Shown here one piece after another: positions 15,254 through 57,521 of a stretch of DNA of 64,000 nt. A model generated the notes under the pieces. The model saw only the letters and a list, made by a program, of their open reading frames with translations. It was not told where the DNA came from and ran no database searches. Both the position numbers and the translations under genes were made by a program. Every line of letters starts with the position of its first letter. Positions within the stretch are counted from its first letter, which is position 1. Where the stretch lies: positions 64,973 through 128,972 of the forward strand of contig CAVSXV010000004.1 in NCBI GenBank assembly GCA_963731995.1. Direction: 5' to 3'. This stretch comes from an uncultured Chloroflexia bacterium (GTDB taxonomy: Bacteria; Chloroflexota; Limnocylindria; Limnocylindrales; CSP1-4).

Positions 15254-16430
15254 ATGAGCGATCCCTTCGGTTCCGGCCAGTCCTTCCGCGATGTCGTGGT
15301 CGTGCCCTATTCCGACCTGCTCGACCGCTGGCGTGACGGCGAGATCCACCGGGGTGGGCCCATCTGGCCCGACTGGGAGGCGCAGGTCGGCGCACGCCAC
15401 GGGCGTGGCGGACGGCCGATCGATATCCGCCCGGCGGACCCGAGGGGCCGATCGCGGCGCCGGGCCGATGGCCTGGGGCGGGGCCATCGTGGACGCCTTC
15501 GGGCACCAGGTGGCCGACTTCTCCGCGCGACTCCTCGCGACCGTGCGGCGCGACCGGACCTGCCCATCGCCTTCGCCTCGCGGCCGGACCTCGGCTACGC
15601 GGACCTCGCGGCCGCACCCGGCTATTTCCGAGCCATCCTCGAGTGGCTCGGTGTGACGCCCGAGCGTGTCCGCATCATCACGGCACCGACCCGCGTCAGG
15701 GAGCTGTTCGTGGCGCCACAGGCGGAGCAGCTCAGCGGCCCTGGCCCCGAGGCCGGCTACCTCGACGCCCTCGATGCGCTCGCGGATGAACGCTCGGGCC
15801 CGCGGGTCGCGACCCGGCTTGCTCTACGTCTCGCGCGCCGCGATGGAGGCGCGCTTCGCCGGCGAGCCGTACCTCGAGGCGGTGCTGGGCGCCGCCGGGG
15901 TCCGTGTCCTGCGACCCGAGACGCTGCCGCTCGCCGCGCAGCTGCGAGCACTACCGTGCGGCGGCCGACATCGTCTTCGCGGAGGGATCGGCGCTGCACG
16001 CCCTCCAGCTGCTGGGGCACGTCGGCGCCGAGTCGGCGTGCTCGAACGGCGACCGGGCACCCGCCTTGCCGAAGCCAACCTCCGGCCCCGCGTACGCGAC
16101 CTCGCCTACGAGGAGGTCGCCACCGGGCTCGTCCACGGCATCCTGCCGACCGGTCGACCGGCGTTGCCGAAGGGCCTGTCGGTGGCCGACCCGGGCGGCT
16201 GTTCGAGGCCTTCGCCCGCCGCGGGGTGGACCTGGGTCCGAGTGGGACGCACGGCCTGGGAGGGGCCCGCGACGCCGACGTGCTGCGCTGGGTGCGAGAC
16301 GCAGGCCGAGGAGCCCGGGCACCTCGGCGTCGGTTCGGCCGAGCTCCATCCTCGAGGGGCTGGCCGACGCTGGCCTGGGCCACCTCGTCGACGAGGCGTC
16401 CGCCCGACTCGAGCCGTTGCGAGCGCACTC
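15254..16430 (+). pseudogene. GT61/DUF563-like glycosyltransferase (capsule-biosynthesis type), multiply frame-disrupted; 3' boundary uncertain
   Basis: Pieces in three frames: 'MAWGGAIVDAFGHQVADFSARLL', 'GYFRAILEWLGVTPERVRIITAPTRVRELFV', 'GLLYVSRAAMEARFAGEPYLEAVLGAAGVRVLRPETLPLAAQL' and 'AAADIVFAEGSALHALQLLG'. The 510-aa ORF 15254..16786 is a mosaic of real and out-of-frame sequence. Confidence 0.5.
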
Positions 16431-17115
16431 GCCGTGCCTCGGAGGGCGCGCGACGCGGGCCGCCCGACGCTGCTGTTCATCGCACATGCCGCGCTCGGGC
16501 GGCGGTGCCGTTCGGGAGCGTGCTGGAGCAGGTGATCCCGGAAGGGGAGCGGGGATCGGTCTATGAAGGTACGGCGCTCGATGCGGGCACGTTCGCCCAG
16601 CTGCCCGAGCCGCAGCGAGCCGCACTCTCGGTCGTGGTGGGCGACTTCGCCTATGGCTTCCACGAGCACATCCCGGGGCCGTGCCCGCTACGCGGTGATG
16701 CTGCGCCACCCGGTCAGCCGCATCCTCTCGCTCTACCGTGCGGCCGGCATGCCGGGTCCGTCGCTCGAGTCGTGGGTCTTCGATGACGCGACGTGTAGAG
16801 GCGGACAACGCCATGGTGCGCGCCATCTCGGTCGACCGGACGTGCCCTTCGGCGCCTGCACCGAAGACATGCTCGAGGAAGCCATCACCCACATCGAGGC
16901 ACATTTCGACGCAGTCCTCGTGCGCGGCAACATGAGTCGGAGCGCGGTCGTGCTAGGTCGGGCCTTGGGGTTGACCCTGCCCACACTGCCGATCGTAAAC
17001 GCCGACCCGGCCGGGGAGGACGCGTTCGACCTAGCCCAAGCCCGTGCGCAGACGACTGCGCCAGCTCAATGCCTTGGACGTCGCCCTCTTCCGCCGATAC
17101 AGCGAGGGCTTCTGA
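16430..17115 (+). pseudogene. Sulfotransferase (paralog 1), multiply frame-disrupted; start approximate
   Basis: 'PTLLFIAHMPRSGGGAV' is a PAPS 5'-phosphosulfate loop equivalent. 'ARYAVMLRHPVSRILSLY' is an RxPxxRxxS 3'-phosphate motif. The remainder reads 'VPFGACTEDMLEEAITHIEAHFDAVLV...LPIVNA' and ends 'FRRYSEGF*' with the stop at 17113-17115. It is paralogous to the genes at 34046 and 34881. Confidence 0.55.
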
Positions 17116-17136
17116 CATCCAGCGTCCTGTCTCCTG

Positions 17137-18168
17137 CTACCTGAGGCGGCCCTTGAACCTCGCCGAGTTGGCCACGATGCGATACGCCCGCACGGCAGAA
17201 CCGTTGCGCGGCATCGCCAGCCGCCAATCGGGGTGCGCAACGGCGCGGTGGGGTTCGTCGGTGTCGAGGTACAGGATGGCCTTGACCCTGGGGAACCGCT
17301 TGAACACGTTGTTGTAGCCGCGCTTGATCCACGCCGCCTTGTTGCCGCCCTTGTGGTTGGAGCCCACCTCGGCGAGGAAGATCGGCTTCCTGGTGAACTT
17401 CCGCGCCAGGGACACGACCCGGCTGACCTTCGTGGGCAGAGCCGTCCAATCTCGCTTCCCTTCGGAACCCGAGATCCCATAGTTCATGATCGTCGCGCCG
17501 ACGTAGTCCACGACCTTGTCGCCCGGATACGACTTGCTCTTGGGCAGGAAGTTGCTCCACAGGAAGAGCGTGTACTTGCGTGCTCCCTCCTGGCGAAAGA
17601 TCTTGTCGATGTGTCGCCAGGCCTTCTTGTAGTTCCTGACCGTGTTGCCATTGTTACCGATGGACCATGGAAACCAGTGGCCGGTCGCCTCATGCGCGAA
17701 GCGCACCACGACCTTGCGCCCGCCGTTCGCCCTGGCCGCGCTCTTGAGGTCGCGGGCCCACTGTCGGATGTAGGCGTCATGTTTCCCGACCGCGATGCGC
17801 TTGTAGCTCGTGTACTTGGGGCTTGCGGGGTGTGCCGGATCGAGAGGCTGCCACCAGATGACCGGGGTGATGCGCTTCTTGAGCAGGGCCTTGGCGACGT
17901 CCAGTGGAAATGCGCAATTCCCCTGATCGCGATGGAGCCGGCACGGCTGCCTCGGCTGCCCCAGTTGCTCCACAGGCCCCACAGTCCGGGCCGCTGTCCG
18001 CCCATCATGTCGATGTGCTCCTGCAGGACGGCGAGGTCGGAACCTCGCGGGTCGGAGATGCCGATCGTGATCCGGTCGCGTGCCGCGACCGGGACGGCCG
18101 CGACCAGCAGCGCCATGACGATGAGGATGGGGATGAGGAGAGATCTGGACGGACGATGGGCCCTCGAT
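17137..18168 (-). pseudogene. Secreted GH26-like glycoside hydrolase (paralog 1), one frame disruption near 17965; start approximate
   Basis: ORF 17137..17982 contains 'VVVRFAHEATGHWFPWS' and 'IFLAEVGSN', the two catalytic-Glu blocks of GH26. The N-terminus 'LLIPILIVMALLVAAVPVAARDRITIGISDP...LWGLWSNWGS' is in the frame of ORF 17484..18857. It is collinear with the intact paralog at 19873..20895. Confidence 0.6.
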
Positions 18169-18295
18169 TTCAGCGTGTGCGGCGTGAGCCGCGCAGGATG
18201 GTTGGGTGGCCTGTAGTCAGGATAGTGGCAGACCGACGGACTATCGGCATCCCGGACGATTGGCCCGTACGGCCACGGTACCGTCTCGTCTTGAG

Positions 18296-19150
18296 CTAGC
18301 TCCCAAGGTACTCGGCGAGCGCGTCCTGCCACGGACGCAGCCCGACGCCGGCGGCGCCTGCCTTGGTCGTGTCCAGCACGCCCCACAGCGGCGGGTCGGA
18401 AGCGCGCTCGAACTCGGCCATGCGCGGTGGGCTGGAGCGCGTGTCCCGGCCGGCGGACATCGAGCACGGCCTGGGCCCAATCGAGACGTGAGGCGAAGCC
18501 CTCGTTGACCAGGTGGAAGACCCCGCCGCTGGTCGGTTCGGTCAGCCCCAAGATGGCACGTGCAAGGTCGAGCGCGTAGGTGGGACAACCGAACTCGTCG
18601 CTGACCACCGAGAGCGGTACTGCAGCCTGTCCGCGGCCGCGGTGATCTTGTCGGGGAAGTCGCGCCCGGCGGCCCGAAAGCCAGGCCGTCCGCACGATCC
18701 ACAGGCCGCGGCTCCGCCGAAGGCTGCCAGCGCTGCCTGCTCTCCGGCGAGCTTGCTCGCGCGTATGCGGTTGCCGCGGGTTCGTGGCTTCGTCCTCGAG
18801 TACGGCTGGCCGTCGTCGCGATCGCCGTCCGAAGACCTCGTTGGTGGAGACCAGCACCAGGCCGGCTCCACCTCACGGCAGGCCGCGCGATCGCGCCCAC
18901 GGCTTCGCCGTTGCGGCGGAGCGCCACCTCCGGCTCACGCGCAGCCTGGTCGACCGCGGTCATGGCTGCGGTATGGATGACCAATCGCGGCTCGGTCGGC
19001 GCACGAGCGCTGCCCCGGTGGCGGGCTCATCCAGGTCCAGCTCGGGCTGGTCCCAGCCGTCGATGGGTCCGGCGGCGCGGCACGCAGTGCTTGTCCCAGA
19101 CGCCCCTTGTCGCCGGAGATCGAGATCCCGGGTTGCGACAGGTCGATCAT
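18296..19150 (-). pseudogene. rmlD: dTDP-4-dehydrorhamnose reductase, multiply frame-disrupted
   Basis: Fragments in three minus-strand frames: 'MIDLSQPGISISGDKGRLGQAL', 'VIHTAAMTAVDQAAREPEVALRRNGEAV', 'LVSTNEVFDGDRDDGQPY...ASKLAGEQAA', 'GGVFHLVNEGFASRLDWAQAVL' and the end 'ALAEYLGS*'. Confidence 0.75.
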
Positions 19151-19160
19151 CGGTGGCGCC

Positions 19161-19745
19161 TCAGCTCCAGTCCTCGTAGCGGAAGTGCTGGGCTTCAGGG
19201 CGCGCCAGCCATCCCTCGAGTGATTGCGCGGGGCGATCGCGGCGCGAGAGGAGGGGCTCCTCCACCGGCCACTCGATGCCGATCTCGGGATCGTCCCAGG
19301 CGATGCCGGATTCGGCATCCGGGCCGTACTACCGGTGGTGAGGTACTCGACGTCAGCGACGTCCGAGAGGGCACAGAAGCCGCGCGCGAAGCAGGCGGTG
19401 CCCACAACTGCAGGTGGTTCTCGTCGTTGGCCACGATCGACTCGTATCGGCCCAGGGTGGGCGAGCCGGGGCGGATATCGACGGCCACGATGAAGGCTTC
19501 ACCACGGGCCACGCGCATGAGCTTGCCCATCGGCGGCTGCCACTGGAAGTGCAGCCCGCGGGTCACACCCTCGCGCTGCGGCTGTGGTTGAGCTGCACGA
19601 ACGCGCTGGGCAGCCCGAGATGGGCGTGCTCGGCGAACAGATCCGCCCGGAAGACCTCCATGAAGAAGCCGCGCTCGTCCTGGAAGGTCTCATGCTCCAC
19701 AATGAGCACCTCTGGGATGGAGGTGCCACGGACAGTGAGCTTCAT
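19161..19745 (-). pseudogene. rmlC: dTDP-4-dehydrorhamnose 3,5-epimerase, multiply frame-disrupted
   Basis: 'MKLTVRGTSIPEVLIVEHETFQDERGFFMEVFRADLF...FVQLNHSRS' comes first. 'RGLHFQWQPPMGKLMRVARGEAFIVAVDIRPGSPTLG' follows, then 'FARGFCALSDVADVEYLTTG', and the end is 'HFRYEDWS*'. Confidence 0.8.
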
Positions 19746-19770
19746 GTCATCTCCATCTCGGTCGTCAACT

Positions 19771-19802
19771 CACAAGGGTGGACCTTCAGGTCCACCTTTG
19801 TG
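19771..19802 (-). terminator. Strong hairpin between the GH26 paralog 2 stop and the rmlC start (candidate intrinsic terminator or RNA-processing stem)
   Basis: cacaagggtggacc-ttca-ggtccacctttgtg forms a 14-bp stem. It has one G-T pair on the plus strand, which is an A-C mismatch in minus-strand RNA. There is no U tract. It lies 70 nt after the upstream minus-strand stop and 26 nt before the rmlC ATG. Confidence 0.4.
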
Positions 19803-19872
19803 GCCCCCTGGAATCTGAACGCGGGGCCCTGCGAGGACCCCACGAAACGGTAGCGGATGACGGTTGGCCTCG

Positions 19873-20895
19873 CTACTTGGGGATGTGCCCCTTGAAGGCC
19901 CTTCGCTTGGCGATGTTGGCGTAGGCCTGGAGCGCCGAGCCGTTGGACGGCAGGTCCAATCGCCAACTCGGGTGCTTCTGTGCGATGACCGCTTCGGTGT
20001 CGAGGTACAGGATGGCCTGGACTCGAGGCTGGCTCCGGTAGGTCTTCATGTAGCCCTTCCTGATCCATGCAGCCTTGTTGCCGCCCTGGTAGTTTGACGC
20101 GACTTCCGAGAGCATGATCGGCCGCTTGCTGAACTGCTTGGCCAGCTTGACCGACCGGTTGACGAGGCCGGGCATCTCACGCCACCTGTTGCGCTTGCCT
20201 GCCTGCTTGCCGAAGTTGAGGATGGTCACGCCCACGTAGTCCACGTAGCGATCACCCGGGTAGGCGCCCTTGCGCGGAAGGTAGTTGCTCCACACGAACT
20301 TGACATGCCTGATCGCGCCGACGGCCTTGAACTGCTTGTGGATGTGGCGCCAAGCCTTCTTGAAGCTGGCTGCGGAGTTGTTCCAGTTCTGGAGCGACCA
20401 CGGGAACCACCGGCCGGTGGCCTCGTGCGCGAAGCGGACCACGATCGGGCGGTTGTTATGGTCCTGAGAGACCGCCTTCAGGTTCCTGGCCCACTGTCGG
20501 ATGTACTTGTCGTGCTTCCCGGACGCGATGGTCGGATAGCTCGACCAGATCTTGTGGCTGTTGGGAGTGTCGTCCGTCGGCTGCCACCAGACCACGGGCG
20601 TGATACCCATGTCCATGAGCCGGTCAGCCTCAGCTCTGGGGAAGAAGCAGTTGCCCCGGCCTTCGATGCAGTTGTTCACGCCCGTGCCATCGCGGCCGCC
20701 CCAGTTGCTCCAGAGCGACCACATCGCAGGCTTGTAGCCCGGGAGGTACTGCCCGACCTCTGCCATGTGCTGCTCGACGGTCCGCCTGGGATCTGAGGCA
20801 CCGATGGCGATCTTGCTTCGGGCTGCGGTCGGCACGGCGGTGAAGAGGACCGCGAGCGCGACGAGCAGCGAGATGGTGGTGAATGAGCGGCGCAA
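19873..20895 (-). CDS. Secreted GH26-like glycoside hydrolase (paralog 2)
   Basis: Intact 340-aa ORF. It has a TTG start with RBS aggaggga upstream and the signal peptide 'MRRSFTTISLLVALAVLFTAVPTAARS'. The catalytic blocks are 'IVVRFAHEATGRWFPWS' and 'IMLSEVASN'. Confidence 0.7.
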   Translation of the reverse strand: MRRSFTTISLLVALAVLFTAVPTAARSKIAIGASDPRRTVEQHMAEVGQYLPGYKPAMWSLWSNWGGRDGTGVNNCIEGRGNCFFPRAEADRLMDMGITPVVWWQPTDDTPNSHKIWSSYPTIASGKHDKYIRQWARNLKAVSQDHNNRPIVVRFAHEATGRWFPWSLQNWNNSAASFKKAWRHIHKQFKAVGAIRHVKFVWSNYLPRKGAYPGDRYVDYVGVTILNFGKQAGKRNRWREMPGLVNRSVKLAKQFSKRPIMLSEVASNYQGGNKAAWIRKGYMKTYRSQPRVQAILYLDTEAVIAQKHPSWRLDLPSNGSALQAYANIAKRRAFKGHIPK

Positions 20896-21324
20896 GGCTT
20901 GTGCTCCCTCCTGTTGCGATGGTCACGGCGCCACCGTCGCGAGACGCGAAGGCCGCTGGCTACAGCGGGATGCTACTACGACAACTTGTCGTATGTCCAT
21001 ACCCGATGTCTCCGCCGGATGCGGCGTGGACGATGGTCCAACTTCGCTCGACGACGACCGCCGCAACGTACCATGCTCTCGCTCTTTAGGCCCACTTGAA
21101 CTTCGTGCGCCGGGTTTGGCCCCAGCCGACCCGGTTGCACGAGCGCTCGCCACGCAGCGACACCGATGGTAGGCTTCGCCTTCATTGCCCGTGCGGGCGG
21201 GATCGCAGATGCCGTGCGTACTGACGAAGCAGGATGGAGACGAAGGGGTTCGCGTGCGCGACACCGAGCGGGCCTGCGCGGCTCACGCCTTCGGGCTGAG
21301 TCCTGTCGCAGGCAGGATGGCCGC

Positions 21325-22722
21325 ATGATCCGCCGCCACGGCGGGATGTTGCGGGCGCTGCTCATGCTCACCGACGGCGCGCTGGCAGTTGCCATGAGCC
21401 TGGCCCTCTACCAGGGCCTGGCGCACCCCGACACCTCGCTGGGCCCCTTCCTCGACGCCTTCTGGGCGCGGGCCCTGGTCTATGGCCTCGCCTGGGTCGG
21501 GCTCCTCTACATCAACGGCGCATATCGACTGCGTGCCCACTGGACCCTCGCATCCGAAGCTCGCTCCGTGGTCCGGGCCACGTTCTGGCTATCGCTGCTC
21601 GGTATCAGCGTGCTGTGGCTCTCGGCTGCCGATCGCGCTGCCAGCGGCTGGGTCCTGCTTCTCTTCCCGTTGCAGGGTGTGCTGGCCATCATCATCCGGG
21701 CGGCGGTTCGGTCGACGTTCATGTACATGCGCCGCCAGGGCTACAACGTTCGCAACCTGCTCATCGTCGGGACCGGCACCGAGGCCACGGACTTCGGGCA
21801 GCTGGTGCGCGAACATAGCATTCTCGGCGTGCAGGTCGTGGGTTACCTCGGCGACGCGACGCCGGCCGGTGTGCCGCAGAGCCAGTACTGGGGCCCGTTC
21901 TCCGACCTGCCCCGGGTCCTCAATGACCGAGTGGTGGACGAGGTGGCGATCTGTGTCCGTGACGATCAATGGCCGGACGTCGAGCCACTCGCCCAGTTGG
22001 CGCACGAGCAGGGGAAGCTGATCCGTGTGCCGCTTCAGGTACCGAGACTGCTCTCGTCGGATCGCACTCTCGAGGAGCTCGACGGGCAGGCGGTACTGTC
22101 ATACGCCTACGGCCCCGACGAGCTCGTGGGTCCCGCGCTCAAGCGTGCCTTCGACATCGCCGCTTCCGCTACGGCCCTGGTGCTGCTCTCGCCGCTCATC
22201 CTGGGCATCGCGGCCGTGCTTCGGATCCGGCAGGGACCCGGGGTGATCTTCCGTCAGCAGCGGATCGGCCTGCATGGTCGGCCGTTCACCATCCTCAAGT
22301 ATCGTACGATGGTCGCGGACGCCGAGGAGCGCTACTCGGAGGTCGCTGGCCGGAGCCATACGAGCGGCGCCGCCTTCAAGCTGGTGGGTGACCCACGTGT
22401 CACCCCGGTAGGGAAGTGGCTCCGCCGCTATAGTCTCGACGAGTTGCCCCAGTTCGTGAACGTCCTGAAGGGCGAGATGAGTATCGTAGGCCCCAGACCA
22501 GCACCGCCTCGCGAGGTTGAGGAGTACGACATATGGCACCGACGCCGCCTCTCGATGAAGCCGGGCATCACCGGCCTCTGGCAGATCACCTCCAGACTGG
22601 ACGAGGACTTCGATCACCGGGCAGAGCTCGATCTGGCCTACATCGACCGATGGTCGATCTGGCTCGACGCGTCGATCGTGCTCAGGACCATCCCGGCCGT
22701 CCTGCGGAAGCCGGGACATTGA
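21325..22722 (+). CDS. Polyprenyl-phosphate glycosyl-1-phosphate transferase (WbaP/EpsB-type priming sugar transferase)
   Basis: N-terminal TM bundle, then a Rossmann-like segment 'NLLIVGTGTEATDFGQLV'. The C-terminal bacterial sugar-transferase domain is 'FDIAASATALVLLSPLILGIA...RIGLHGRPFTILKYRTM...SLDELPQFVNVLKGEMSIVGPRP...KPGITGLWQI'. The start is chosen at ATG 21325 (RBS agga 8 nt upstream). Confidence 0.85.
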   Translation: MIRRHGGMLRALLMLTDGALAVAMSLALYQGLAHPDTSLGPFLDAFWARALVYGLAWVGLLYINGAYRLRAHWTLASEARSVVRATFWLSLLGISVLWLSAADRAASGWVLLLFPLQGVLAIIIRAAVRSTFMYMRRQGYNVRNLLIVGTGTEATDFGQLVREHSILGVQVVGYLGDATPAGVPQSQYWGPFSDLPRVLNDRVVDEVAICVRDDQWPDVEPLAQLAHEQGKLIRVPLQVPRLLSSDRTLEELDGQAVLSYAYGPDELVGPALKRAFDIAASATALVLLSPLILGIAAVLRIRQGPGVIFRQQRIGLHGRPFTILKYRTMVADAEERYSEVAGRSHTSGAAFKLVGDPRVTPVGKWLRRYSLDELPQFVNVLKGEMSIVGPRPAPPREVEEYDIWHRRRLSMKPGITGLWQITSRLDEDFDHRAELDLAYIDRWSIWLDASIVLRTIPAVLRKPGH

Positions 22723-24197: not shown

Positions 24198-24200
24198 CTG

Positions 24201-25085: not shown

Positions 25086-25091
25086 TCGCGC

Positions 25092-34868: not shown

Positions 34869-34880
34869 GCGCCGAGCCCG

Positions 34881-37770: not shown

Positions 37771-37800
37771 CGGTACCACGTCGGGCAGCTACCGCCAACG

Positions 37801-45971: not shown

Positions 45972-45989
45972 GCCGCGGTCGGACCCGGG

Positions 45990-46536: not shown

Positions 46537-46784
46537 ATGGACCTCGTCGCTGTCGTCGGCCAGGGAGCGCCCGATGGCCGGGTCTGCTGTTTCCGGTGGC
46601 GCTCACCGTAGCACCGCTCGCGGGGCGGCTCCGCCGCTGTCGCGGCTCGACGCTGGGGGTACAGGCAGCCCCGGACGGATGGTGCCAGAGCGGGGGCCGG
46701 CAATGGGCCAGGACTGGCCCGAGACGAGGATGCGGTAGCGTCTCCGATGTCACACTCGAGCCACCTTGGCCAGGAGGCAAGTTT

Positions 46785-49354: not shown

Positions 49355-49382
49355 CCGACCATCGAGACCACGAGGGGGACCA

Positions 49383-50322: not shown

Positions 50323-51553
50323 CTATCTGTGTCGGAGCCTCGCCATCAGGTTGCGATACCACGCAGTCCATCGCCAGATGTGACTGGTCATCACGATGTC
50401 CCGCTCGGCAGCGATGGCGTCTCGCTCAGCCATCGCCCGTCGCGCTCGGCAGCCGCGACATCCCGCTCGGCGATCGCCTGGTCCCGCTCGGCCATCACCG
50501 TATCCCGTTCCGCTGCCGTCGAGTCGCAGAGGTCCTGTAAGGAAACGGATAGCCTGTACCGCGTAACCGACTGGTACCCGTGTGCGCTCTACGGGCATGT
50601 CGGAGGCAACTGGCGCTCGGTTCCTCTGCCTCGCCGATGAGCATCTTGATGGATGGTTCGAGGGCTTCGGCAAGGGCGCCGTCTGGCTCCGTCGTCGGCG
50701 GCATGTTCGAGACTCCCTGCTCGCCGTCGGCCGGGATCGAGTGACTGGCCCAGAAGTCATCGAGCCGCCCCGACTGTTCCATTCGACGCAACATCTGGTT
50801 CTGCCAGCCATGCGAGCGCGGCAGGTGGGAATCGATGAGGGCTTGGCCGTGCCGGGATTTCAGCGCGACCTGCCTCCGGCTCGGCAGAGGTAGATGGGCC
50901 GCCCGGAGCCGGCTCGCCGGCTCATCGATCTCGTGCACTCCTTGGGTGTGCTTGAGGTCGTGGGCGCCAGCCTTGATCCAGCTCGCGCGGTGCCCACGCA
51001 TGATGATCTTGGACTCGAACCGGGCATCGAAGTAGTTCATGTTCCCGCGTTCGATCTCATCGGCCAGGATCTCTCCCGGCACCTCGGCGAAGATATTCGG
51101 TCGCGCCCGATACCGGATCTCGTCGTAGCGAGCAAGGTCGGCATCATCGAAGGTGCTCGGAGCGACCCAGTTGTGCACTTCGTATCTCACGGCGTCTACG
51201 TCGGGGGGCACGTCGGCGAGGATGTCGCGGAGGCCTTGTCCGCGCGGTGCGAGCAGGTACTCATCCGCATCGAACACGTACACCCACTCGTGCTCCGCGA
51301 AGCGACCGACGCGCGCCATCAGTGCCGTCGCTGCTTCCTGGCTGTAGTCGGGGTCATCGAGCCGGTAGACCGACAGACGGCCCGGCCATGCGCGCTCCAG
51401 ATGCCCCAGGCCGGTTGCAGTCTCGTCGGTGCTGGCATGGTCCAGCACCAGCACATGGTCTACGTGGTTCGCCAATGCGTGTGTGATGGCTAGCGCAAGA
51501 CGCGGCCACTCATCGCGTGCCATCACATAGCCGACGATGCGAGACGTGGTCAT
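50323..51553 (-). pseudogene. GT-A-type glycosyltransferase (GT2-like) with a C-terminal 'AERD' heptad coiled-coil tail, one frame disruption in the tail
   Basis: ORF 50495..51553 contains 'IVGYVMARDEWPRLALAITHALANHVDHVLVLDHASTDET' and 'EWVYVFDADEYLL' (DxD). The tail in ORF 50323..50811 and the adjacent frame reads 'AAERD TVMAERD QAIAERD VAAAERD ..AMAERD AIAAERD IVMTSHIWRWTAWYRNLMARLRHR*'. Confidence 0.6.
50395..50520 (-). repeat. Six tandem 21-nt (7-aa, xxxAERD) coding repeats
   Basis: Plus-strand copies of the gtcccgctcggc... motif recur every 21 nt. The minus-strand translation gives the AERD heptads. One copy carries the frame lesion. Confidence 0.7.
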
Positions 51554-52410
51554 GCCTCAATTCGCTCTACGAAGCCCTGTGCAGCGAGCCATTGCTCGTC
51601 GTGCTGCCTCAGCTGGCGATCGAACTCGCCTCGGAACGCGAAGTCCACGTACGAGGAAATCTTGCTGCGCGAAGGATCCACGAAGTGCACGGACTTCCCC
51701 AGCATCAGCGCGCTGACGACCACGTGCAGCCGATCGCTCACGACCACATCGGCGCTCCGTATCCGCTCCAGAAACTCGGCTAGGCTTCTCGTAGTCACGC
51801 TGATGTCGTCGTTCAGAGGTTCTACGGGACGCCAGCCATCCTCCCGAGTCGGCTGTCCTTGTCCGTCCTCAGCGCGATCAGCACCGACCCGCTGATATCC
51901 TCCTGGATCGGGCCGGATCGGGTGACGAGAAGTCCATGGCGTACAGCGCAGCATCCAGCGCAAGGGTGGCTCTGCCGAGTGGCTTGATCCGGTGGTATGA
52001 GTCGACTTCCCGTGCGAACGGGGTAGACGTTTAGCCGCGATAGGACGTCGAGCACCACTGGCACGGAGACGTCGTACGAAGATGGCAGCACCACAACGCG
52101 CTCAAAGGCAGTGGATGCGTCAGCGACGAGGCTGGGGAGCCAGTCGTGCCAGACTGCCGTCCATGCGCCGCTTCCTGGCACGACGAGCGTTCCGCCACGC
52201 CACGTGTCGGGATCTCGAAGCAGTTCGGACATCGGCAGCCTCGTATACGAGACCATGGTGTGTGTCGAGGAGCTGCGCCGTGCCCGCCCAGATCAGATGG
52301 TCGCCGATGTTGCCGTACATCTCGCCGAGGAGATGCACCGGTCCTATCTGTCGCACGAACGAGCAGACCGCATACCCATACAAGCGGGCGCGCTCGCGGA
52401 ACGGGATCAT
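51550..52410 (-). pseudogene. Polysaccharide pyruvyl transferase (CsaB/WcaK family), frame-disrupted
   Basis: 'MIPFRERARLYGYAVCSFVRQIGPVHLLGEMYGNIGDHLIWAGTAQLL' is in ORF 52120..52542. 'GGTLVVPGSGAWTAVWHDWLPSLVADASTAFERVVVLPSSYD' is in ORF 51822..52256. 'IRSADVVVSDRLHVVVSALMLGKSVHFVD' is in ORF 51550..51963. The stop overlaps the next ATG (ATGA). Confidence 0.65.
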
Positions 52411-52594
52411 GGGCGCGGGCTCGCTTGCGCCGGCGAGGCACATCGCGCCGGCGCTCGGGACTGTTGGGCGCCTCGGCAGACATGGCTCAGAGGATAATCG
52501 CTCGATCCGTCGCCGGGCTACGATTGCCCGATGCGACTTCACGACGGGTCCGCTCGGCCATGAGGGCCGTGCACTGGTTCGGCAGGACGATCCG

Positions 52595-53431
52595 ATGCGC
52601 AGCCCGGAAGGTCGCTGCCTGGACAGCCTGCAGCGGGCCCCGGTGGCGCTCTACTCCGAATCGCTGCCGCTGGCCGTGCTCTTCAGCCCCAAGGCCGGGA
52701 CCACGTTCGCGGTGAAGTGGTTCTTCTTCCAGGAGGGTGTCCTCGACGAGGCACTGGCCTACGCGAAGTGGCCCCACCCGTATCGCCAGGAGGTCTTCTA
52801 CCAGCGGCCCGACTACGTCAAGAAGCTGGCTGCGGTCCCGTCGCTCGGCCCCAGGGTCGTCAAGTTCGTGCGCGATCCCTACGACCGGGCCGTGAGCTCC
52901 TACCTGCACTTCTGCGAGCTGTCGCAGCGGGATGACCCGATCCAGGCTCGCGCTGTCCTCGCCGACATCGGTGATCACCTGGGGCGTCGTGTCGGCATCG
53001 AGTCGTCATTCACCTTCCGTGAGTTCGTGAGCTACCTCGCCTCCATCGACCTTCACGTCGCCAATGTGCACTTCCGCACGCAAGTGAGTCCGTGCGAGCG
53101 AGACGGTCTCCTGCAGGAGATGCGCATCGTCAAGATCGAGGAGAGTCGCGACGAGCTGCCACGCCTGGAGGCGGACCTCGGCCTCAAGCCGAGCGACTAC
53201 GAGGAGCTGCGGAGCTCGCCGCACCACACGACCCGCGCGGATCTGCCCGGCTTCTTCGGTGATACGGAATTCGGCCTCGCGCGAGATGTGCCGACGCCGA
53301 GGACGGCGTCGTTCTACGACGAAGCGCTGATCCGCCAGAGTCGGGCGACTGTACGCAGGAGGACTGCGAGGCGTACGGGTACGAGTCCGCCGACCCCGCC
53401 GTCCGCCGACGAGCCAGCTACCGAACCGTAG
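52595..53431 (+). pseudogene. Sulfotransferase (fourth, of a distinct subfamily), probable frame disruption near the 3' end
   Basis: 'LAVLFSPKAGTTFAVKWFF' is the PAPS loop PKxGTT. 'VVKFVRDPYDRAVSSYLHF' is the RDPxxRxxS motif. 'FTFREFVSYLASIDLHVANVHFRTQ' also fits. The long upstream part of ORF 52082..53431 overlaps the pyruvyl transferase on the opposite strand and is probably not translated. The C-terminus may continue in another frame ('GRLYAEDCEAYGYES'). Confidence 0.6.
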
Positions 53432-53537: not shown

Positions 53538-55227
53538 TCATGGCCCGCCTGGGTCAGCGCATCCAGGGCCCCGGTCACGATCGACGAGCTTCTCGTCCGA
53601 CGGAGGCGCTACATCCGCGGCCGCCGCGATCCGGCGTTGCTTGATCCGATCGGCGTCGCCCTCGAACGGTCCGCTGCCCATGGCGAAGGTTTGCACGAGC
53701 GGCTGCATGGCCGCGGGATACTCCTCCAACGCGGTGCGGTAGTCGCGGCTCAGGGACGCGACCCCGTCGCGGATGCGCTCGGCACACTGCCGCCGCCAGG
53801 CCTCGGTGGCCTCGACTCCCTCGTTGAGCTCCAACAGGACGCCGGGGCGCGGCGTCTCCGATTCGTCCGGCAGCACCGCCAGCTGGAAGGAGCGCACCGC
53901 GGCCGCAAGCTCGGGCTCCGCGTACAGGGTGGCCTCCACGTCCTCGGGATAGATGTTGGCGCCCATGATGCTGACGGTCGCGTCCCGGCGCCCGAAGATC
54001 CACACGAACGGGAGGGGCACCGGCTCCGTCCAGGGCAGGGGACCGCGTGGGCCGTACGCCTGCGGGTGTTCGCCCAGCCGGTCCAGCTCGTAGCCATGCT
54101 CGCGAAGGACCTTCTGCACGCGCCGGTAGCGAGCCACGCCACCCTCGTCGTGGACGTTGTAGCGGATGCGCGGTGCCAGCAGGTCGAGGCGGCTGACCGT
54201 GGCCACCACCTCCGAATCGTCGTTGACCTCCAGGAAGTGGATGAGCGGGTTGTACTGGAAGACCATGGGCAGGCGAGAGCGATCGCCGAAGAGCGCGGCG
54301 CGAACCTCCGGATCGGCGCGGGCGATCCGTCGCACGGCCACGCTGACCGGTGTCTCGGCCGCCATGCCGACCTCCAGGTCGGTCGCGCCGTAGCCGGAGT
54401 ACACCGAGGCGAAGCGTTCGAGCAGGTAGTCGCGCAGTCCCTCGGCCATGCCTTCGCCGCCGACGAGCCCGTGGATCTCGTAGTCGCCCCAGGGGAAGCC
54501 GCGGGCATCGCCGACCTCGAGCAGTCGCTTGAGGAACGGTGGGTAGCCACAGATCGTGTAGCGGTAGCGTGGGCCCAGGAGCTGCAGCGTGGAGAAGATC
54601 TTGTCGAGGTCGGGACCGGTGGACTTGACGATCGCCGTGCCGGTTCATGCCTTGCGCGGTGTTGATGCCGGCGGCCCAGGCGCCCATCGAGAAGGCGTTG
54701 ATGGTCACCATCGGGGCATCGCCGAAGATGTAGCGGGCAAAGAAGCCGATGTTGCGATGGGCGATGATCCGCTCCCGCTCGCAGCGGATCCAGTCGTACG
54801 GCCGGCCCGTGGAGCCGCTCGATTCATCGAGGGTCGTGCCCTTGAACGTGAACCTGCCATCGACACAGCGATCCTCGATCGAGAAGCGGTCGATGTACGA
54901 GTGCTTGTCCGTCTCGGGCAGCTCGTGGAGGATCCCCAGCGGCCAGGCTTCATCAGCGTGGAGGCCGCGCTCCCGGATCAGGCGGCCATAGGCGGGCACG
55001 CGACGGATGGCTCGGAAGGCGGCCCGTTCGGCGCGCAGCCGGCCCAGGAACTCGAGCAGGATCGGTGGGCTGTAGGTGAAGAGCGCCTTCAGCCACGCGA
55101 AGCGCAGGCCGAAGAGGCGGAACGTGACGTCGAGCGGGAGCAGCCAGGTCGCACGCAGGACGCCACCCAGCGTGGCCGCGCGGACCGAGCCTCGCTTGGC
55201 TGAGCGACTCAGTGACGTGGAACGCAT
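53538..55227 (-). pseudogene. CapK / coenzyme F390 synthetase-like adenylate-forming enzyme (PaaK family), two frame disruptions
   Basis: The N-terminal half is in ORF 53575..55272: 'YGRLIRERGLHADEAWPLGILHELPETDKHSYIDRF', 'LDESSGSTGRPYDWIR' (AMP-binding Ser/Thr/Gly loop) and 'INAFSMGAWAAG'. The C-terminal half is ORF 53538..54449: 'YGATDLEVGMAAE', 'IRYNVHDEGG' and 'VSIMGANIYPEDVE'. Confidence 0.65.
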
Positions 55228-55319
55228 GACTGGCGACCTCCCGTGACGGCGATCACCTGAGTCTCGACCCAAGACGTGCTCCTGTCATCGGTCAGCGGCT
55301 CAGTGGCCGCCTTATTCGG

Positions 55320-56499
55320 TCATGAGCCGACGGGGATGCGGCCGGCACCGGCCGAGGCCTCCACGCCGAAGACGCTGGCCTCGATGCCGGTGGCGCTGTA
55401 GTACTCCCGCTCGACGTGCTCCGCGAAGTCCTCGAGGCTCCAGCGATCGACGATCGCCACGAGGCAGCCACCGAAGCCGGCACCGGCCTGCCGGCGGGCG
55501 ATGAGGCCGGGGGCGCCGGTCATGGCCTCGTGCATGGCCGTCATCGACGGCGCGCCGATCTCGAACAGCCGGTTCGCACCCAGCCAGGAGGCGTCGAAGA
55601 TGCGGCCCGAGCGCATCCTGATCGCCCGTGCGCAGCGGCTCGGCCAGGTCCAGCACCCGCTGGTTCTCCTCGATGATGAAGCGACAGCGGCGGGCCACGA
55701 CCGGATCCAGCTCCGCCTCGTGCGCCTCGAACAGCTCCAGGCTCACGTCTCGCAGCGCCCTGACGCCCGGGTCGAAGCCGCGCGAAGTGGGCGGCACCGG
55801 CCTCGCACTGCGCCCGCCGCTCGTCGTACTCGGAGCCGGTCAGCTGGCGTGGGGCACGCGTGTCGCAGATGACCACCGCCAGCTCCTCGCTGATGCTCAC
55901 CGGCTCGCTGGTCAGCGCGCGGCAGTCGAGCAGCAGGGCATGCCCGGCCGTGCCCAGCACGGAGGTGTACTGGTCGAGGATCCCGCAGGCCACGCCCACG
56001 AACTCGTTCTCGACCCGCTGGCCCAGCAGCGCCAGCTCGAGCGGCTCGAGCTCCACCCCGCTGACGTGGGCGAAGGCCAGCAGCGCCACCGACTCGATGG
56101 CCGCCGACGACGACAGGCCGCTGCCGAAGGGCACGGTGCTGTGCAGCAGCCCGTCGAAGCCGGCGAGGTCGATCCCATCATCGATGAGCACCTTCGCCGC
56201 ACCACGGACGTAGTCGGTCCAGGGCGCGGCGGGGTCGTGCTCGATATGGTCGAGGCTGAACTCCGCCGAGCCCGGCAGGTTCAGCGTGGCGATGCGGACC
56301 ACGCCGGTCGGACCGCGGTCGGATCGACGATCCAGGTGTCGCGGTCCACGGTCATGGTGGCCACGAAGCCGTCGTTGTAGTCGGTGTGGCTGCCCATCAG
56401 GTCCACGCGACCCGGGGCGCGGAACCAGGCGGTCGGCGCTGCCCCGTACAGCTTGGTGAACTCGAGCGTGAGGGCCTCGACCCGCCGGCTGCGGTCCAT
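55320..56499 (-). pseudogene. galK: Galactokinase (GHMP kinase), frame-disrupted
   Basis: 'MDRSRRVEALTLEFTKLYGAAPTAWFRAPGRVDLMGSHTDYNDGFV' is the galactokinase signature. 'STVPFGSGLSSSAAIESVAL' is GHMP motif II. 'ENEFVGVACGILDQ' follows, and the C-terminus is 'RQAGAGFGGCLVAIV...REYYSATGIEASVFGVEASAGAG'. Confidence 0.8.
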
Positions 56500-56501
56500 G
56501 G

Positions 56502-57521
56502 CTAGGCCAACTCCTCCATGGCCTCCATGAGCGCCTCGATGTTGGCCATCGGGATGTCGCTCATCATCCGGTGCGAGGGCGCCAGCATCAGGCCGGTGCC
56601 GTTCGGCGCCAGGTCGGCCACGCACCGGCGAGCAGCGTCCTTCACCTCCTCGGGCGTGCCGTAGGGGAGGACCGTCTGGGTCGAGACGCCGCCGTAGAAG
56701 GCCAGCTTCCCGCCGAACTCCCGGTGCAGCCAGCGGTGGTCCACGACCTCCGGCTGGACCGGGTTGAGCGCGGTCAGGCCGATCTCCACGAGGTCGGGGA
56801 CGACGGAGGCGATGTCGCCATCGGAGTGCATCATCACCGGCAGGCCGCGGTCGAGGAAGGGCTCGAACAGGCGGGCCAGCCGGGGCTTGACGATCTCGCG
56901 CCAGGTGACCGGGCTGAACAGCGTGCTGACCTGGGCACCGTAGTCGTCGCCGAAGTAGGCACCGTCCACGCCGAGCTCGAGGTAGCGCTCGATGACCACG
57001 AGCCGGATCTCGACGATGCGGTCCATGAGCTCGCCGATGTAGGCGGGATCGAGCGCCAGCTCGAGCAGGGTGTTCTCGAATCCGCGAAGCGACCAGACGC
57101 GCTCGAAGAGGGCCCAGCCGACGTTGGGCACCACGAAGGCGGAGTCGCCCACTTGCTCGCGGACCGCCTTCGCCTCGTCGAGCAGGTGCGGATCGTGCGG
57201 GTCGGGCCAATCGTAGGTGTCGAGATCCCTGTCCTCGGCGAGTGGGGCCACGCGGATGTAGTAGCCCTCTTCGTGGGTGTCGTGGCCGGCGCCCCACCAA
57301 TCGAAGCGGACGGCGCCATCCTCGCTGTAGCGGGGCTCGTACGTCAGGTCGAGGCGCGCGAGGTGGTTGTCGAGCCGCTCCGGCAGGTCGGCCGGATCGA
57401 CCCCGAAGTGCTCCGCCATCGCCTGGCCCATGGAGCCGGTGTAGTTGAACTGCGTCGGCAGGCGGTCGACCTCCTGGTACGTCAATGCCCGCCGCACGCG
57501 CTCGCTCCGGGTCAGCTCCAT
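56502..57521 (-). CDS. Uroporphyrinogen decarboxylase (URO-D) family protein, MtaA/CmuA-like
   Basis: Intact 339-aa ORF. 'ERVRRALTYQEVDRLP', 'GVDGAYFGDDYGAQ', 'MMHSDGDI' and 'LNPVQPE' are typical of the URO-D fold family. Its stop is 2 nt from the galK start. Confidence 0.6.
   Translation of the reverse strand: MELTRSERVRRALTYQEVDRLPTQFNYTGSMGQAMAEHFGVDPADLPERLDNHLARLDLTYEPRYSEDGAVRFDWWGAGHDTHEEGYYIRVAPLAEDRDLDTYDWPDPHDPHLLDEAKAVREQVGDSAFVVPNVGWALFERVWSLRGFENTLLELALDPAYIGELMDRIVEIRLVVIERYLELGVDGAYFGDDYGAQVSTLFSPVTWREIVKPRLARLFEPFLDRGLPVMMHSDGDIASVVPDLVEIGLTALNPVQPEVVDHRWLHREFGGKLAFYGGVSTQTVLPYGTPEEVKDAARRCVADLAPNGTGLMLAPSHRMMSDIPMANIEALMEAMEELA

Follow-up and report, generated by a model that had tools for sequence, protein, structure and literature searches.

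Gene content of the locus

The 64,000-nucleotide stretch of DNA analysed here (the window) comes from an uncultured Chloroflexia bacterium and carries a large set of genes predicted to serve surface-glycan synthesis. The region 15.2-58.8 kb was divided into 81 protein-like segments (about 33 genes), and Pfam was run on stitched proteins. Family searches support nearly every gene of a preliminary description of the window at its place, only once the reading frames are stitched. The genes for precursor supply, priming and export are:

455..1501, +, rmlB, dTDP-glucose 4,6-dehydratase (Pfam matches; cluster members so named by their sources)
18241..19160, -, rmlD, dTDP-4-dehydrorhamnose reductase, frameshifted (a fragment matches RmlD_sub_bind, E 1e-10)
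19164..19861, -, rmlC, dTDP-sugar 3,5-epimerase, three frames (PF00908 E 5.5e-37, whole profile)
21166..22722, +, WbaP-type polyprenyl-phosphate hexose-1-phosphate transferase, intact, 518 aa (Bac_transf E 4e-66, and CoA_binding_3)
27133..27852, -, rmlA, glucose-1-phosphate thymidylyltransferase, intact (PF00483 E 4e-53; cluster members so named by their sources)
32110..33070, -, wzt, ABC transporter ATPase, frameshifted (ABC_tran match)
33072..34020, -, wzm, ABC-2 permease, three frames (ABC2_membrane match)

These matches agree with the proposed Wzm/Wzt-exported, WbaP-primed glycan pathway, supplied with a dTDP-rhamnose-type precursor and furnished with many predicted decorating enzymes. No scanned segment matches the Wzx or Wzy families. 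The rmlB gene lies 14 kb from the cluster.

The glycosyltransferase genes are:

15254..16400, +, GT61-like (DUF563) glycosyltransferase, three frames (stitched protein: PF04577 E 7e-6, 26.8 bits against a cut-off of 27)
27970..28920, +, GT2 glycosyltransferase, intact, 316 aa (Glyco_tranf_2_3 and Glycos_transf_2)
28917..32113, +, multidomain GT2, about 1065 aa once two shifts, near 30.7 and 31.25 kb, are corrected (Pfam GT2 domains)
35729..37767, +, GT2 domain, then a GT4-like domain, about four frames (Glycos_transf_2 E 7e-23 at 35729-36900)
37771..39837, +, GT4 glycosyltransferase preceded by a coiled-coil/repeat region, split (Glyco_trans_1_4 E 1e-18, about 39.0-39.8 kb)
39860..40700, +, possible GT-A-type transferase, 'DPD' motif (read from the translation only)
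41790..44388, -, GT-C-type membrane glycosyltransferase, about 850 aa, CBM-like domain at the C-terminus, two shifts (homologues and model)
44900..45974, -, GT2, on the strand of the GT-C gene and upstream of it, at least three shifts (Glycos_transf_2 E 2e-19 on the stitched protein)
50495..51556, -, GT2-like (Glyco_tranf_2_4), intact (PF13704 E 1e-13)

At least nine such genes had been claimed; family searches support eight, and the putative GT-A-type gene has no match in Pfam or PDB searches. The GT61-like assignment stands in weakened form, just under the cut-off, and a homologue (58-62% identity) adjoins rmlD in the related locus L006. The multidomain protein, described as a triple GT2 and as a rhamnosyl/methyl-transferase, has the expected length, but Pfam finds two of the three domains (N-terminal and C-terminal) and no methyltransferase domain; its gene contains frame-changing indels at 29903, 30642 and 31274 and is 84-94% identical in L016. 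In the proposed GT2+GT4 fusion the GT2 part is clear, but the GT4-like domain (37.1-37.8 kb) is weak (Glyco_trans_1_4 E 1e-4, below cut-off). Only seven homologues of the GT-C protein were found, the distant ones carrying PF13231 (PMT_2); the model of one of them, P0188 (pLDDT 62, low confidence), matches EmbA/B/C and CBM16/4/22. Elsewhere these homologues have a GT2 gene directly adjacent (and in one case also a GtrA gene), and in two other contigs a methyltransferase gene is found no more than about 2 kb away, in one of them directly adjacent; in the window the GT-C gene lies between a GT2 and a methyltransferase-like gene.

Four sulfotransferases had been reported; they are listed with a gene for sulfate activation:

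3444..3981, +, APS kinase (PAPS supply), split (PF01583 E 4e-16)
16450..17141, +, sulfotransferase-like gene a (3'-PB-like motif RHPVSRILSLYR in the translation; cross-matches)
34046..34830, +, sulfotransferase b, frameshifted (5'-PSB motif 'FMHIPKTAGST' and 'SHYYHY' motif in the translation)
34830..35725, +, sulfotransferase c, frameshifted (VRDPVDRVVSLYYHF motif in the translation; weak Sulfotransfer_1/2 matches)
52595..53431, +, sulfotransferase d, intact (PF03567, Sulfotransfer_2, E 4e-6)

Pfam matches, their own or those of relatives, support b, c and d: intact relatives of b in L003 and L016 match PF06990 (52 bits) and PF03567, c is 65% identical to an L016 copy that matches PF03567, and the L002 orthologue of d (95% identity) matches it at E 1e-8. 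Gene a has no Pfam match of its own, and motifs and cross-matches suggest its assignment, the latter to the sulfotransferases beside wzm in L003 and L016 and to a 73% identical L006 homologue. The APS kinase is possibly linked to these enzymes.

The remaining modification, envelope and flank genes are:

17137..18216, -, secreted GH26 enzyme a (PF02156 E 2e-10)
19873..20922, -, secreted GH26 enzyme b, intact (PF02156 E 8e-14)
22719..24200, +, membrane-anchored protein, Pro/Thr/Lys linker and two SBP-like (NMT1-like) domains, split (weak NMT1 match)
24200..25085, +, sortase-domain membrane protein, split (PF04203 E 2.5e-16)
25488..27060, +, DUF4012 protein, split (PF13196 E 5e-26)
40900..41658, +, Cys-rich segment and SAM methyltransferase-like gene, split (Methyltransf_11 E 1e-3, below cut-off)
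46132..46602, -, cupin, weakly RmlC/FdtA-like (PDB sequence matches 3ejk and 7n67, at E 0.3-0.4 only)
46747..48213, +, DUF6395 protein, QueC-like PP-loop ATPase, intact, 488 aa (homologues carry PF19932)
48587..49354, +, short-chain dehydrogenase/reductase (SDR), intact (adh_short_C2 E 1e-41)
49355..50292, +, DapA/DHDPS-family aldolase, three frames (weak DHDPS match)
51553..52650, -, polysaccharide pyruvyl transferase, split (PF04230 37.9 bits against a cut-off of 25.3, C-terminal part only)
53538..55284, -, PaaK/CapK-like adenylate-forming enzyme, one shift near 54640 (phenylacetate-CoA ligase structures, E 1e-4)
55323..56560, -, galK, four uncompensated 1-nt insertions (GHMP_kinases_N and GalKase_gal_bdg)
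56502..57521, -, URO-D/MtaA-like protein, intact, conserved flank (PF01208 E 4e-24; sub-threshold similarity to the NCBIfam MtaA/CmuA family)

The GT-C-like protein, both GH26 enzymes, the sortase and the DUF4012 protein are supported by family, homologue or model matches, as are the pyruvyl transferase, the CapK-like enzyme (an intact 548-aa orthologue in L006) and the SDR, whose copies in L005, L006 and L015 (70-81% identity) adjoin rmlC in L005 and L015 and rmlA in L006. The aldolase is supported by an intact L006 orthologue (79-94% identity, DHDPS E 1e-41). In the DUF6395 protein the SGGxD motif and a CxxC..C cluster are invariant, the confident model (pLDDT 83) matches QatC best (E 3e-6) and also TilS and ArtA, and some homologues are fused to PS_pyruv_trans; the QueC-like reading is supported. 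The SAM methyltransferase and the extra RmlC-like cupin remain weak assignments.

Broken reading frames

About two thirds of the genes are broken over 2-5 reading frames. These shifts are most likely consensus errors of a Nanopore-only metagenome assembly and not gene decay. The related MAGs (Microflora Danica) are Flye assemblies of Nanopore reads with one Medaka round (PMC12313526), and they are shifted at other sites (rmlA in L016, GH26 and DUF4012 genes in L001). Single-frame copies of rmlC (L003, L005 and L016), wzm (329 aa in L016, 95-100% identity), wzt (278 aa in L016, 100% identity across 203 aa), galK (390 aa in L002) and the SBP-like gene (492 aa in L001, lacking a C-terminal sorting signal) occur in relatives; the L001 sortase-domain gene is also intact (296 aa), and its rmlD orthologue is a called gene with RmlD_sub_bind. 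Housekeeping genes of the flank (PPIase, APS kinase and MazG) are split as well. Two observations speak against assembly error: the shifts are patchy (none in 5.1-13.7 kb or 58.8-64 kb, many in 1.5-5.1 and 15-57 kb), which a uniform error model does not predict, and a 124-nt imperfect duplication of the Walker A region would, if real, break wzt. The fragments of split genes, compared with intact orthologues, are under purifying selection, with dN/dS values (wzt 0, wzm 0-0.15, galK 0.04-0.2, rmlC 0.1-0.2) similar to those of intact genes (wbaP 0.09, URO-D-like gene 0.13). Together with the intact copies and independent shifts of the relatives and the split housekeeping genes, this selection makes assembly error far more likely than decay.

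Conserved core and variable island

The nearest loci all belong to MAGs named uncultured Chloroflexia bacterium isolate MFD..., so that the host is a Chloroflexia MAG and not, as had been supposed, a high-GC Gram-positive-type (actinobacterial) genome. Nor is the region one fixed supercluster: a conserved core is joined to a lower-GC island exchanged between close relatives. The left half (17-36 kb) is the core conserved across related species. L016 has 17.2-33.9 kb in common with the window at 80-100% amino-acid identity, and L003 keeps the same gene order at 50-88% identity; two sulfotransferase genes adjoin wzm in all three and form part of this core. Copies in L001 and L016 are 95-96% identical for the WbaP-type transferase (dN/dS 0.08-0.09) and 92-93% for GH26 enzyme a. 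The right half (36-55 kb) varies; it is a decoration island of the type by which O-antigens diversify, and between 32 and 48 kb GC drops to 0.60-0.66, from 0.68-0.71. L002 has in common with the window a sulfatase, VapBC, the URO-D-like gene (also adjoining galK there), galK and sulfotransferase d, beyond which the island is replaced by quite different sugar genes (FabH-like, AMP-binding, DegT, FdtA and GtrA); the PaaK/CapK-like gene is absent at the corresponding position. The galK gene, counted earlier within the cluster, belongs with the URO-D-like gene to the conserved flank. O-antigen-like and wall-polysaccharide loci usually consist of a core with an exchangeable island, and the stretch is, with good probability, a strain-variable, ABC-transporter-dependent locus for a cell-surface polysaccharide in an uncultured soil Chloroflexia bacterium, its polymer being probably wall-associated.

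Predicted pathway and known systems

In the scheme that we infer, in its sugars, its order of steps and the anchoring of its polymer, RmlA/B/C/D would provide dTDP-L-rhamnose or a related 6-deoxyhexose (the label 'rhamnan' would follow from the rml genes alone), and the WbaP-type transferase would prime synthesis by loading hexose-1-phosphate onto polyprenyl phosphate. The chain would be built by cytoplasmic GT2, GT4 and GT61-like enzymes, including the multidomain GT2, modified in the cytoplasm by PAPS-dependent sulfotransferases, the pyruvyl transferase and the methyltransferase, and exported via Wzm/Wzt; gating of export by a terminal cap is improbable, as Wzt lacks a carbohydrate-binding tail. 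A Gtr-like module may add side branches outside the membrane, the GT2 making a polyprenyl-P-sugar that the GT-C enzyme with its CBM-like domain would transfer, and the two secreted GH26 enzymes may trim or process the polymer. For the DUF6395, PaaK-like, SDR and DapA-like enzymes, any substrate assignment is putative. The window yielded no LCP ligase, no O-antigen-ligase-like gene and no other enzyme for anchoring.

This is an ordinary ABC-transporter-type pathway in which unusually many enzymes are predicted for sulfation, pyruvylation and side chains. To our knowledge, sulfation has seldom been described for bacterial polysaccharides, and its prediction here is the one mildly notable point of the locus. 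The novelty claimed for the combination is reduced, because the sulfotransferase pair is common to relatives, a GT4 cluster of an Anaerolineae MAG combines a sulfotransferase with an LCP gene and an ABC-2 membrane (Wzm-type) gene, and a cluster described from Actinoplanes in 2026 (PMC13390465) has two sulfotransferases, a methyltransferase and a GH26. The suggested analogy with the S-layer-glycan slg locus does not hold in its defining parts: neither an S-layer gene nor a Wzy_C-type oligosaccharyltransferase was found, and the multidomain glycosyltransferase lacks a methyltransferase domain. A better fit is the streptococcal scheme for rhamnose wall polysaccharides, with ABC export followed by GT2 and GT-C decoration outside the membrane.

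Source genome, gene calling and frameshifts

A scan with RmlA over one genome per GTDB species retrieved 15 close loci, all of them from uncultured Chloroflexia MAGs of the Microflora Danica (MFD) long-read project, the best being L016 (93% identity) and L003 (90%), and after these 15 the next matches fall to 46% or less. This places the host in Chloroflexia, and the high-GC Gram-positive-type genome assumed in the preliminary description is not borne out. G+C varies between 60 and 71% across the window. Over much of 15-58 kb neither plain ORF listing nor codon-usage calling trained on clear genes is reliable, and between 33 and 46 kb, where atypical composition is combined with dense frameshifts, codon-usage calling is unusable. 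Genes were called by amino-acid log-odds, trained on clear genes, over every stop-to-stop frame; this scoring gave 81 protein-like segments, with neighbouring same-strand runs lying in different frames, and family searches were done on pseudo-proteins stitched from neighbouring segments of the same strand. Of roughly 33 genes, about 10 lie in a single ORF (the two GH26 genes, wbaP, rmlA, the GT2 gene at 27970, the DUF6395 gene, the SDR gene, GT2_4, sulfotransferase d and the URO-D-like gene). Pfam searches of the stitched proteins recovered almost the entire gene inventory that had been proposed for a rhamnose-based Wzm/Wzt glycan supercluster at 15254-57521; that observation stands, and the interpretation given to it is supported in part. 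Its left boundary, at about 15254, is correct, because housekeeping genes and a separate sugar-uptake operon lie to the left:

1.5-7.4 kb: housekeeping genes
7995-15194: intact LacI / ABC sugar uptake / GH32 / GH13 operon

Taken at face value, the 40-odd frameshifts and the duplication in wzt would be real and the cluster a non-functional relic, whose glycan is no longer made. Splitting affects about two thirds of the genes, galK carries four uncompensated 1-nt insertions relative to the related locus L002, and the 124-nt duplication in wzt alters the frame. The shifts are present in the deposited assembly itself, where the call for the GT-C-like gene is a 485-aa fragment on a contig of 727,275 bp, and ten window ORF products, truncated ones included, are identical to database proteins from this contig; an artificial alteration of the window was rejected for that reason. 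Long flank stretches are free of any shift (5.1-13.7 kb, an 8.6-kb stretch of sugar-uptake genes, and 58.8-64 kb, the final 5 kb of the window). Against decay, dN/dS between the fragments of split genes and their intact orthologues (wzt, 0; wzm, 0-0.15; galK, 0.04-0.2; rmlC, 0.1-0.2) is as low as in the unsplit wbaP (0.09) and URO-D-like (0.13) genes. Relatives at 90% ANI (L001, L016 and L006) differ in their shifts within the same genes: rmlA is intact here and split in L016, GH26 and DUF4012 genes are broken in L001 and rmlC in L006, and among the relatives rmlC, wzm, wzt, galK and the SBP-like, DapA-like and PaaK-like genes are found in a single frame. Essential-type flank genes are split as well, namely those for MazG, a PPIase-like protein (~1.6-3.3 kb) and APS kinase, in a shifted zone at 1500-5150. 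The source assemblies were built from Nanopore reads alone and polished once (PMC12313526), and over 16.7 kb the window and L016 are separated by 57 net frame-changing indels (~3.4 per kb), in genes whose fragments are under purifying selection. Decay of the cluster is thus unlikely, and it is best to regard the frameshifts as a matter of data quality, although neither their patchiness nor the repeat in wzt is explained by this. The latter consists of two direct copies of 73 nt (32653-32725 and 32777-32849, 88% identical and 124 nt apart) that duplicate the Walker A region, which is single-copy in L016, and it resembles a faulty join between two strain variants in the assembly. Annotation calls for caution, since a hypervariable glycan locus in a MAG built from Nanopore reads alone can resemble a pseudogene graveyard.

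Conserved core and variable island

The locus comprises a core (17-36 kb) conserved among related species and a variable island of lower GC (36-55 kb), with the following features:

16450-17141: sulfotransferase a
21166-22722: WbaP-type priming transferase
28917-32113, plus strand: multidomain GT2 protein
32.1-34.0 kb: wzt and wzm
34046-34830: sulfotransferase b
34830-35725: sulfotransferase c
37939-38502: tandem ~35-aa motif in the N-terminal region of a GT4 gene
39.9-40.7 kb: GT-A-like gene
41790-44388, minus strand: GT-C-like gene
45974-44900, same strand and upstream of the GT-C-like gene: GT2
46747-48213, plus strand: DUF6395 gene
52595-53431: sulfotransferase d

Between 17.2 and 33.9 kb, L016 has 88-93% DNA identity and 80-100% protein identity to the window and an identical gene order (GH26, rmlD, rmlC, GH26, wbaP, SBP-like, sortase, DUF4012, rmlA, GT2, multidomain GT2, wzt, wzm). 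This order is kept in L003 at 50-88% identity. A compact and reshuffled version, in which the SDR gene adjoins rmlC, occurs in L004, L005, L015 and L017, and in L006 rmlA adjoins the SDR, DapA-like and PaaK-like genes, with the GT61-like gene and sulfotransferase a also present. L002 has in common with the window everything from the sulfatase to sulfotransferase d, except for the PaaK-like gene, which is missing there. In this same locus (~90-92% DNA identity) the island is replaced at 13269-21020 by other sugar genes, encoding an acetyltransferase, an SDR, FabH-like, AMP-binding and DegT proteins, a GT2, a hexapeptide transferase, FdtA and GtrA. Judged by its gene families, the FdtA, DegT, hexapeptide transferase, FabH-like, AMP-binding and GtrA set is typical of an N-acylated 3-amino-3,6-dideoxyhexose, and with this replacement the site would encode a different type of glycan. 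Taken together, the core shared by the relatives, the replacement in L002 and the lower GC at 32-48 kb give a familiar picture, in which a decoration part that can be exchanged is attached to a conserved backbone part. No tRNA or Rfam feature was found as a boundary at the island edges.

The same data could be read as two or more unrelated pathways lying side by side, a wall-polysaccharide core and a separate island for an exopolysaccharide, a glycolipid or protein glycosylation (with the GT-C-like, DUF6395, pyruvyl transferase, PaaK-like, SDR and DapA-like genes), so that the decoration toolkit would not act on one polymer. The island has its own GC content and is exchanged between relatives, its SDR, DapA-like and PaaK-like genes travel together beside rmlA in L006 without most other island genes, galK and the URO-D-like gene belong to the conserved flank and not to the island, and GT-C enzymes of the PMT_2 type are known to be able to glycosylate proteins. 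This reading is rather doubtful, since the window encodes one export system and one priming transferase only, the SDR and related genes are again found among rml genes in L006, L005 and L015, and a variable island on a conserved core is the normal layout of a single O-antigen or wall-polysaccharide locus (for Rha-CWPS, see the review PMC9574508).

On the right, galK, the URO-D/MtaA-like gene, the VapBC-like pair and the gene for a 787-aa sulfatase are conserved in L002. Features on this side of the window are:

56502-57521, minus strand: URO-D-fold protein
57651-58350, plus strand: VapBC-like pair (NikA-like/RHH antitoxin and PIN toxin)
58865-59650: bestrophin-like gene
59837-62200, minus strand: sulfatase

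The URO-D-fold protein has sub-threshold similarity to MtaA/CmuA methylcobamide methyltransferases, and its gene overlaps the start of galK, with which it is kept in L002. The VapBC-like pair, whose PIN gene appears shifted in the window, is flanked in L002 by the URO-D-like gene and the sulfatase region, and the gap between toxin-antitoxin and sulfatase genes, occupied here by the bestrophin-like gene, holds in L002 (6016-9103) a guanylate-cyclase/AAA_16 gene and a TPR gene. The sulfatase is intact (PF00884, E 4e-65) and occupies the same place in L002; the members of its protein cluster are named arylsulfatase by their sources.

Assembly, export and decoration of the predicted glycan

RmlA, RmlB, RmlC and RmlD are all encoded, rmlC and rmlD being frameshifted and rmlB lying 14 kb outside the cluster. 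The priming transferase (Bac_transf, E 4e-66) is the sole primer found; no Glycos_transf_4 match (MraY/WecA family), as expected of a WecA/GacO-type primer, was obtained. wzm and wzt are encoded together (ABC2_membrane and ABC_tran matches), and both copies are frameshifted in the window; the L016 orthologues are intact (Wzm, 329 aa; Wzt, 278 aa), and over 203 aa this Wzt has the same sequence as the window copy (100% identity). The stitched proteins of 15-58 kb gave no Polysacc_synt or Wzy_C match indicative of Wzx/Wzy, with the caveat that short or badly shifted genes could escape such a search. Since no exporter other than Wzm/Wzt, no primer other than the WbaP-type transferase and no Wzx/Wzy were seen, the chain would be completed at the cytoplasmic face of the membrane and then exported whole. 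A terminal cap is unlikely to gate export, because the L016 Wzt consists of the nucleotide-binding domain and a short charged tail, lacking the C-terminal carbohydrate-binding domain; a WbdD-like terminator was not found in the window either. In the multidomain protein, Pfam and NCBIfam detect GT2 domains only. Several genes match their families weakly: the GT61-like gene falls just below the Pfam cut-off (26.8 bits against 27), the cupin (E 0.3) gives nothing above NCBIfam cut-offs, the methyltransferase is recognized at E 1e-3, and the GT-A-like gene obtained no match in a PDB sequence search. The 492-aa protein adjacent to the sortase was considered as an LPXTG substrate and dropped, because it has no C-terminal sorting signal. 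In the open-access literature DUF4012 appears in three papers only, of which two concern Bifidobacterium longum and one of these its capsular polysaccharide.

Sulfotransferase d matches PF03567 (27.6 bits against a cut-off of 22) and nothing above NCBIfam cut-offs. Copies b and c match weakly in the window, and their intact relatives in L003 and L016 match PF06990 (Gal-3-O_sulfotr, 52 bits) and PF03567 (Sulfotransfer_2, 38 bits); sulfotransferase a was recognized by motif and cross-hits only. The translations show the 5'-PSB and 3'-PB motifs that bind PAPS. Two sulfotransferase genes adjoin wzm in the window, L016 and L003, that is, in three species, suggesting that sulfation is conserved and encoded by the core. 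An APS kinase gene that could be the source of PAPS for the four sulfotransferases lies 11 kb left of the cluster:

3444-3981, plus strand: APS kinase (PF01583, E 4e-16), split over two frames

Being soluble enzymes with cytoplasmic donors, the predicted sulfotransferases, pyruvyl transferase and methyltransferase would act before export. Outside cyanobacteria, bacterial sulfated polysaccharides are considered rare (PMC13390465), reportedly also in the synechan study. Sulfotransferases of the same family as those found here are widespread in environmental bacteria: one lies among GT4 genes with an ABC-2 permease (Wzm-type) and an LCP gene in an Anaerolineae MAG, and another inside a cyanobacterial Wzx/Wzy cluster. 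Sulfated polysaccharides have been called uncommon in bacteria (PMC13390465, 2026), and in the literature searched none is described as an envelope polymer in Chloroflexia. Together with the Anaerolineae case, the wzm/wzt-linked sulfotransferases of soil Chloroflexia raise the possibility that such polymers are commoner in soil bacteria than thought.

The gene described as QueC-like belongs to the PP-loop superfamily and to its QueC-like branch, but the curated QueC models do not match it; no other NCBIfam model scores above its cut-off, and no PDB sequence matches. Precomputed Pfam assignments place a minority of its homologues in DUF6395 (PF19932) and list no family for most, the window protein included. 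In the alignment, S144 and G146 of the SGGxD PP-loop and a cluster of three cysteines (C313/C316/C319) are invariant, and G145 and D148 nearly so. The structural model (pLDDT 82.8) has QatC as its best Foldseek match (E 3e-6), followed by TilS, the nitrile synthetase ArtA, GMP synthetase and Cap9. The family is common in Alphaproteobacteria and metagenomes, and no mention of it was found in the open-access literature. About 8 of its best 120 homologues, including P0004, P0007, P0023, P0033-P0035 and P0120, are fused to a PF04230 pyruvyl transferase domain, a fusion that links the two functionally. In the window, the pyruvyl transferase itself matches PF04230 with 37.9 bits (cut-off 25.3), in an alignment confined to profile positions 234-278 because the gene is split. 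A reasonable guess from these domains is that the DUF6395 protein is an adenylating enzyme that acts on the carboxylate of the pyruvate ketal, and the locus supplies a genomic context for this uncharacterised family. The PaaK/CapK-like gene matches phenylacetate-CoA ligase (PaaK) structures of the PDB with E 1e-4 over ~200 residues, has no Pfam match and scores far below NCBIfam cut-offs. The DapA-like gene is weak in the window, and its intact orthologue in L006 (79-94% identical) matches DHDPS with E 1e-41. The ~35-aa motif '...(W)YL..YPDV...G.NPL.HY...G..EGR.P...FD' of the GT4 gene, which has no Pfam match, is also found at the low-confidence C-terminus of the DUF6395 protein (48269-48442) and in an ORF of L003 (904-2079).

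The GT-C-like protein has 7 homologues (P0186-P0192) among 5.8 billion clustered proteins and nothing above NCBIfam cut-offs, and its distant homologues (27-38% identical) carry PF13231 (PMT_2). A low-confidence model of a full-length homologue (pLDDT 62) matches EmbA/B/C with E 3e-4 but a TM score of 0.26; its C-terminal domain matches CBM16/4/22, and a domain resembling a carbohydrate-binding module, as in Emb arabinosyltransferases, is predicted at the C-terminus. In two other contigs a GT2 gene directly adjoins the GT-C homologue, with GtrA past the GT2 in one, and in both contigs a methyltransferase gene lies at most ~2 kb from the homologue, directly adjoining it in one. By gene order, the GT2 and GT-C-like pair of the window resembles the three-component systems by which sugars are attached outside the membrane.

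As a tentative proposal, these soil Chloroflexia may make a sulfated, pyruvylated, rhamnose-containing wall polysaccharide exported by Wzm/Wzt, with sulfation encoded by the core and the DUF6395 enzyme working on the pyruvate-ketal carboxylate, for example by amidation. If true, it would be a sulfated envelope polymer in Chloroflexia and provide a first function for DUF6395. What makes the locus interesting is that conserved sulfation is predicted for a little-known soil lineage and that DUF6395 gains a genomic context; the known logic of polysaccharide assembly is left unchanged by any of this.

Comparison with known polysaccharide systems

By analogy, the best functional counterpart is the rhamnose-rich wall polysaccharide pathway of streptococci and lactococci. 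The Rha-CWPS of streptococci, lactococci and enterococci (GAC/SCC) have been reviewed (PMC9574508), and GacI/GacL have been described (bioRxiv 10.1101/180810). Common to both are the rml precursor supply, cytoplasmic assembly on a polyprenyl carrier (predicted here), a Wzm/Wzt-type ABC exporter and a conserved backbone part with variable side-chain genes; extracytoplasmic decoration by a GT2 (polyprenyl-P-sugar synthase) and a GT-C has its possible counterpart here in a gene pair known from sequence. In contrast, priming is of the WbaP type here and by a WecA/GacO-type GlcNAc-1-P transferase there, a GacB-type first rhamnosyltransferase was not found here, and the window has neither a GacH-type glycerol-phosphate transferase nor an LCP ligase gene (no LytR_cpsA_psr match), although the latter may sit elsewhere in the genome. 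The sulfotransferases, pyruvyl transferase, DUF6395 protein and PaaK-like enzyme lie outside the streptococcal scheme, and the host is a Chloroflexia bacterium.

The slg locus of Geobacillus stearothermophilus NRS 2004/3a, to which the preliminary description compared this one, reportedly uses WsaP, a WbaP homologue, to prime an ABC-transporter-dependent rhamnan-type glycan, and is said to include the oligosaccharyltransferase WsaB (Wzy_C), a linked S-layer gene and WsaE, with methyltransferase and rhamnosyltransferase domains. As expected of an S-layer protein glycosylation locus of this type, the window encodes a WbaP homologue and Wzm/Wzt, together with rml genes and a multidomain transferase. 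The genes that define slg were not found among the stitched proteins: there is no O-oligosaccharyltransferase equivalent to WsaB, no S-layer structural gene and no WsaE-type fusion, the multidomain transferase being without a detected methyltransferase domain, and the linker-rich 492-aa protein has SBP-like domains. The resemblance is therefore not upheld, and S-layer glycosylation is a highly improbable role for the locus.

The O-antigens of Escherichia coli O8/O9a and of Klebsiella are polymerised in the cytoplasm by multidomain glycosyltransferases and exported by Wzm/Wzt, without Wzx/Wzy. The present locus is like them in its Wzm/Wzt, its multidomain glycosyltransferases and the lack of a detected Wzx/Wzy, and unlike them in having no lipid A-core ligase context, carbohydrate-binding domain in Wzt or WbdD-like terminator.

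The synechan cluster (xss) of Synechocystis reportedly follows a Wzx/Wzy-type route. In Actinoplanes missouriensis, the predicted wps-1 cluster, described as Wzx/Wzy-dependent, combines a methyltransferase and a GH26 enzyme with two sulfotransferases (PMC13390465), which weakens the novelty claimed for the combination of modification genes. As in both clusters, sulfotransferases of Family-2/Gal-3-O and other types are embedded here among glycosyltransferases, and the methyltransferase and GH26 enzyme of wps-1 also have counterparts. Unlike both, the Chloroflexia locus is Wzm/Wzt-dependent, and it has four sulfotransferase genes, with the APS kinase and the sulfatase encoded in the same 64-kb window.
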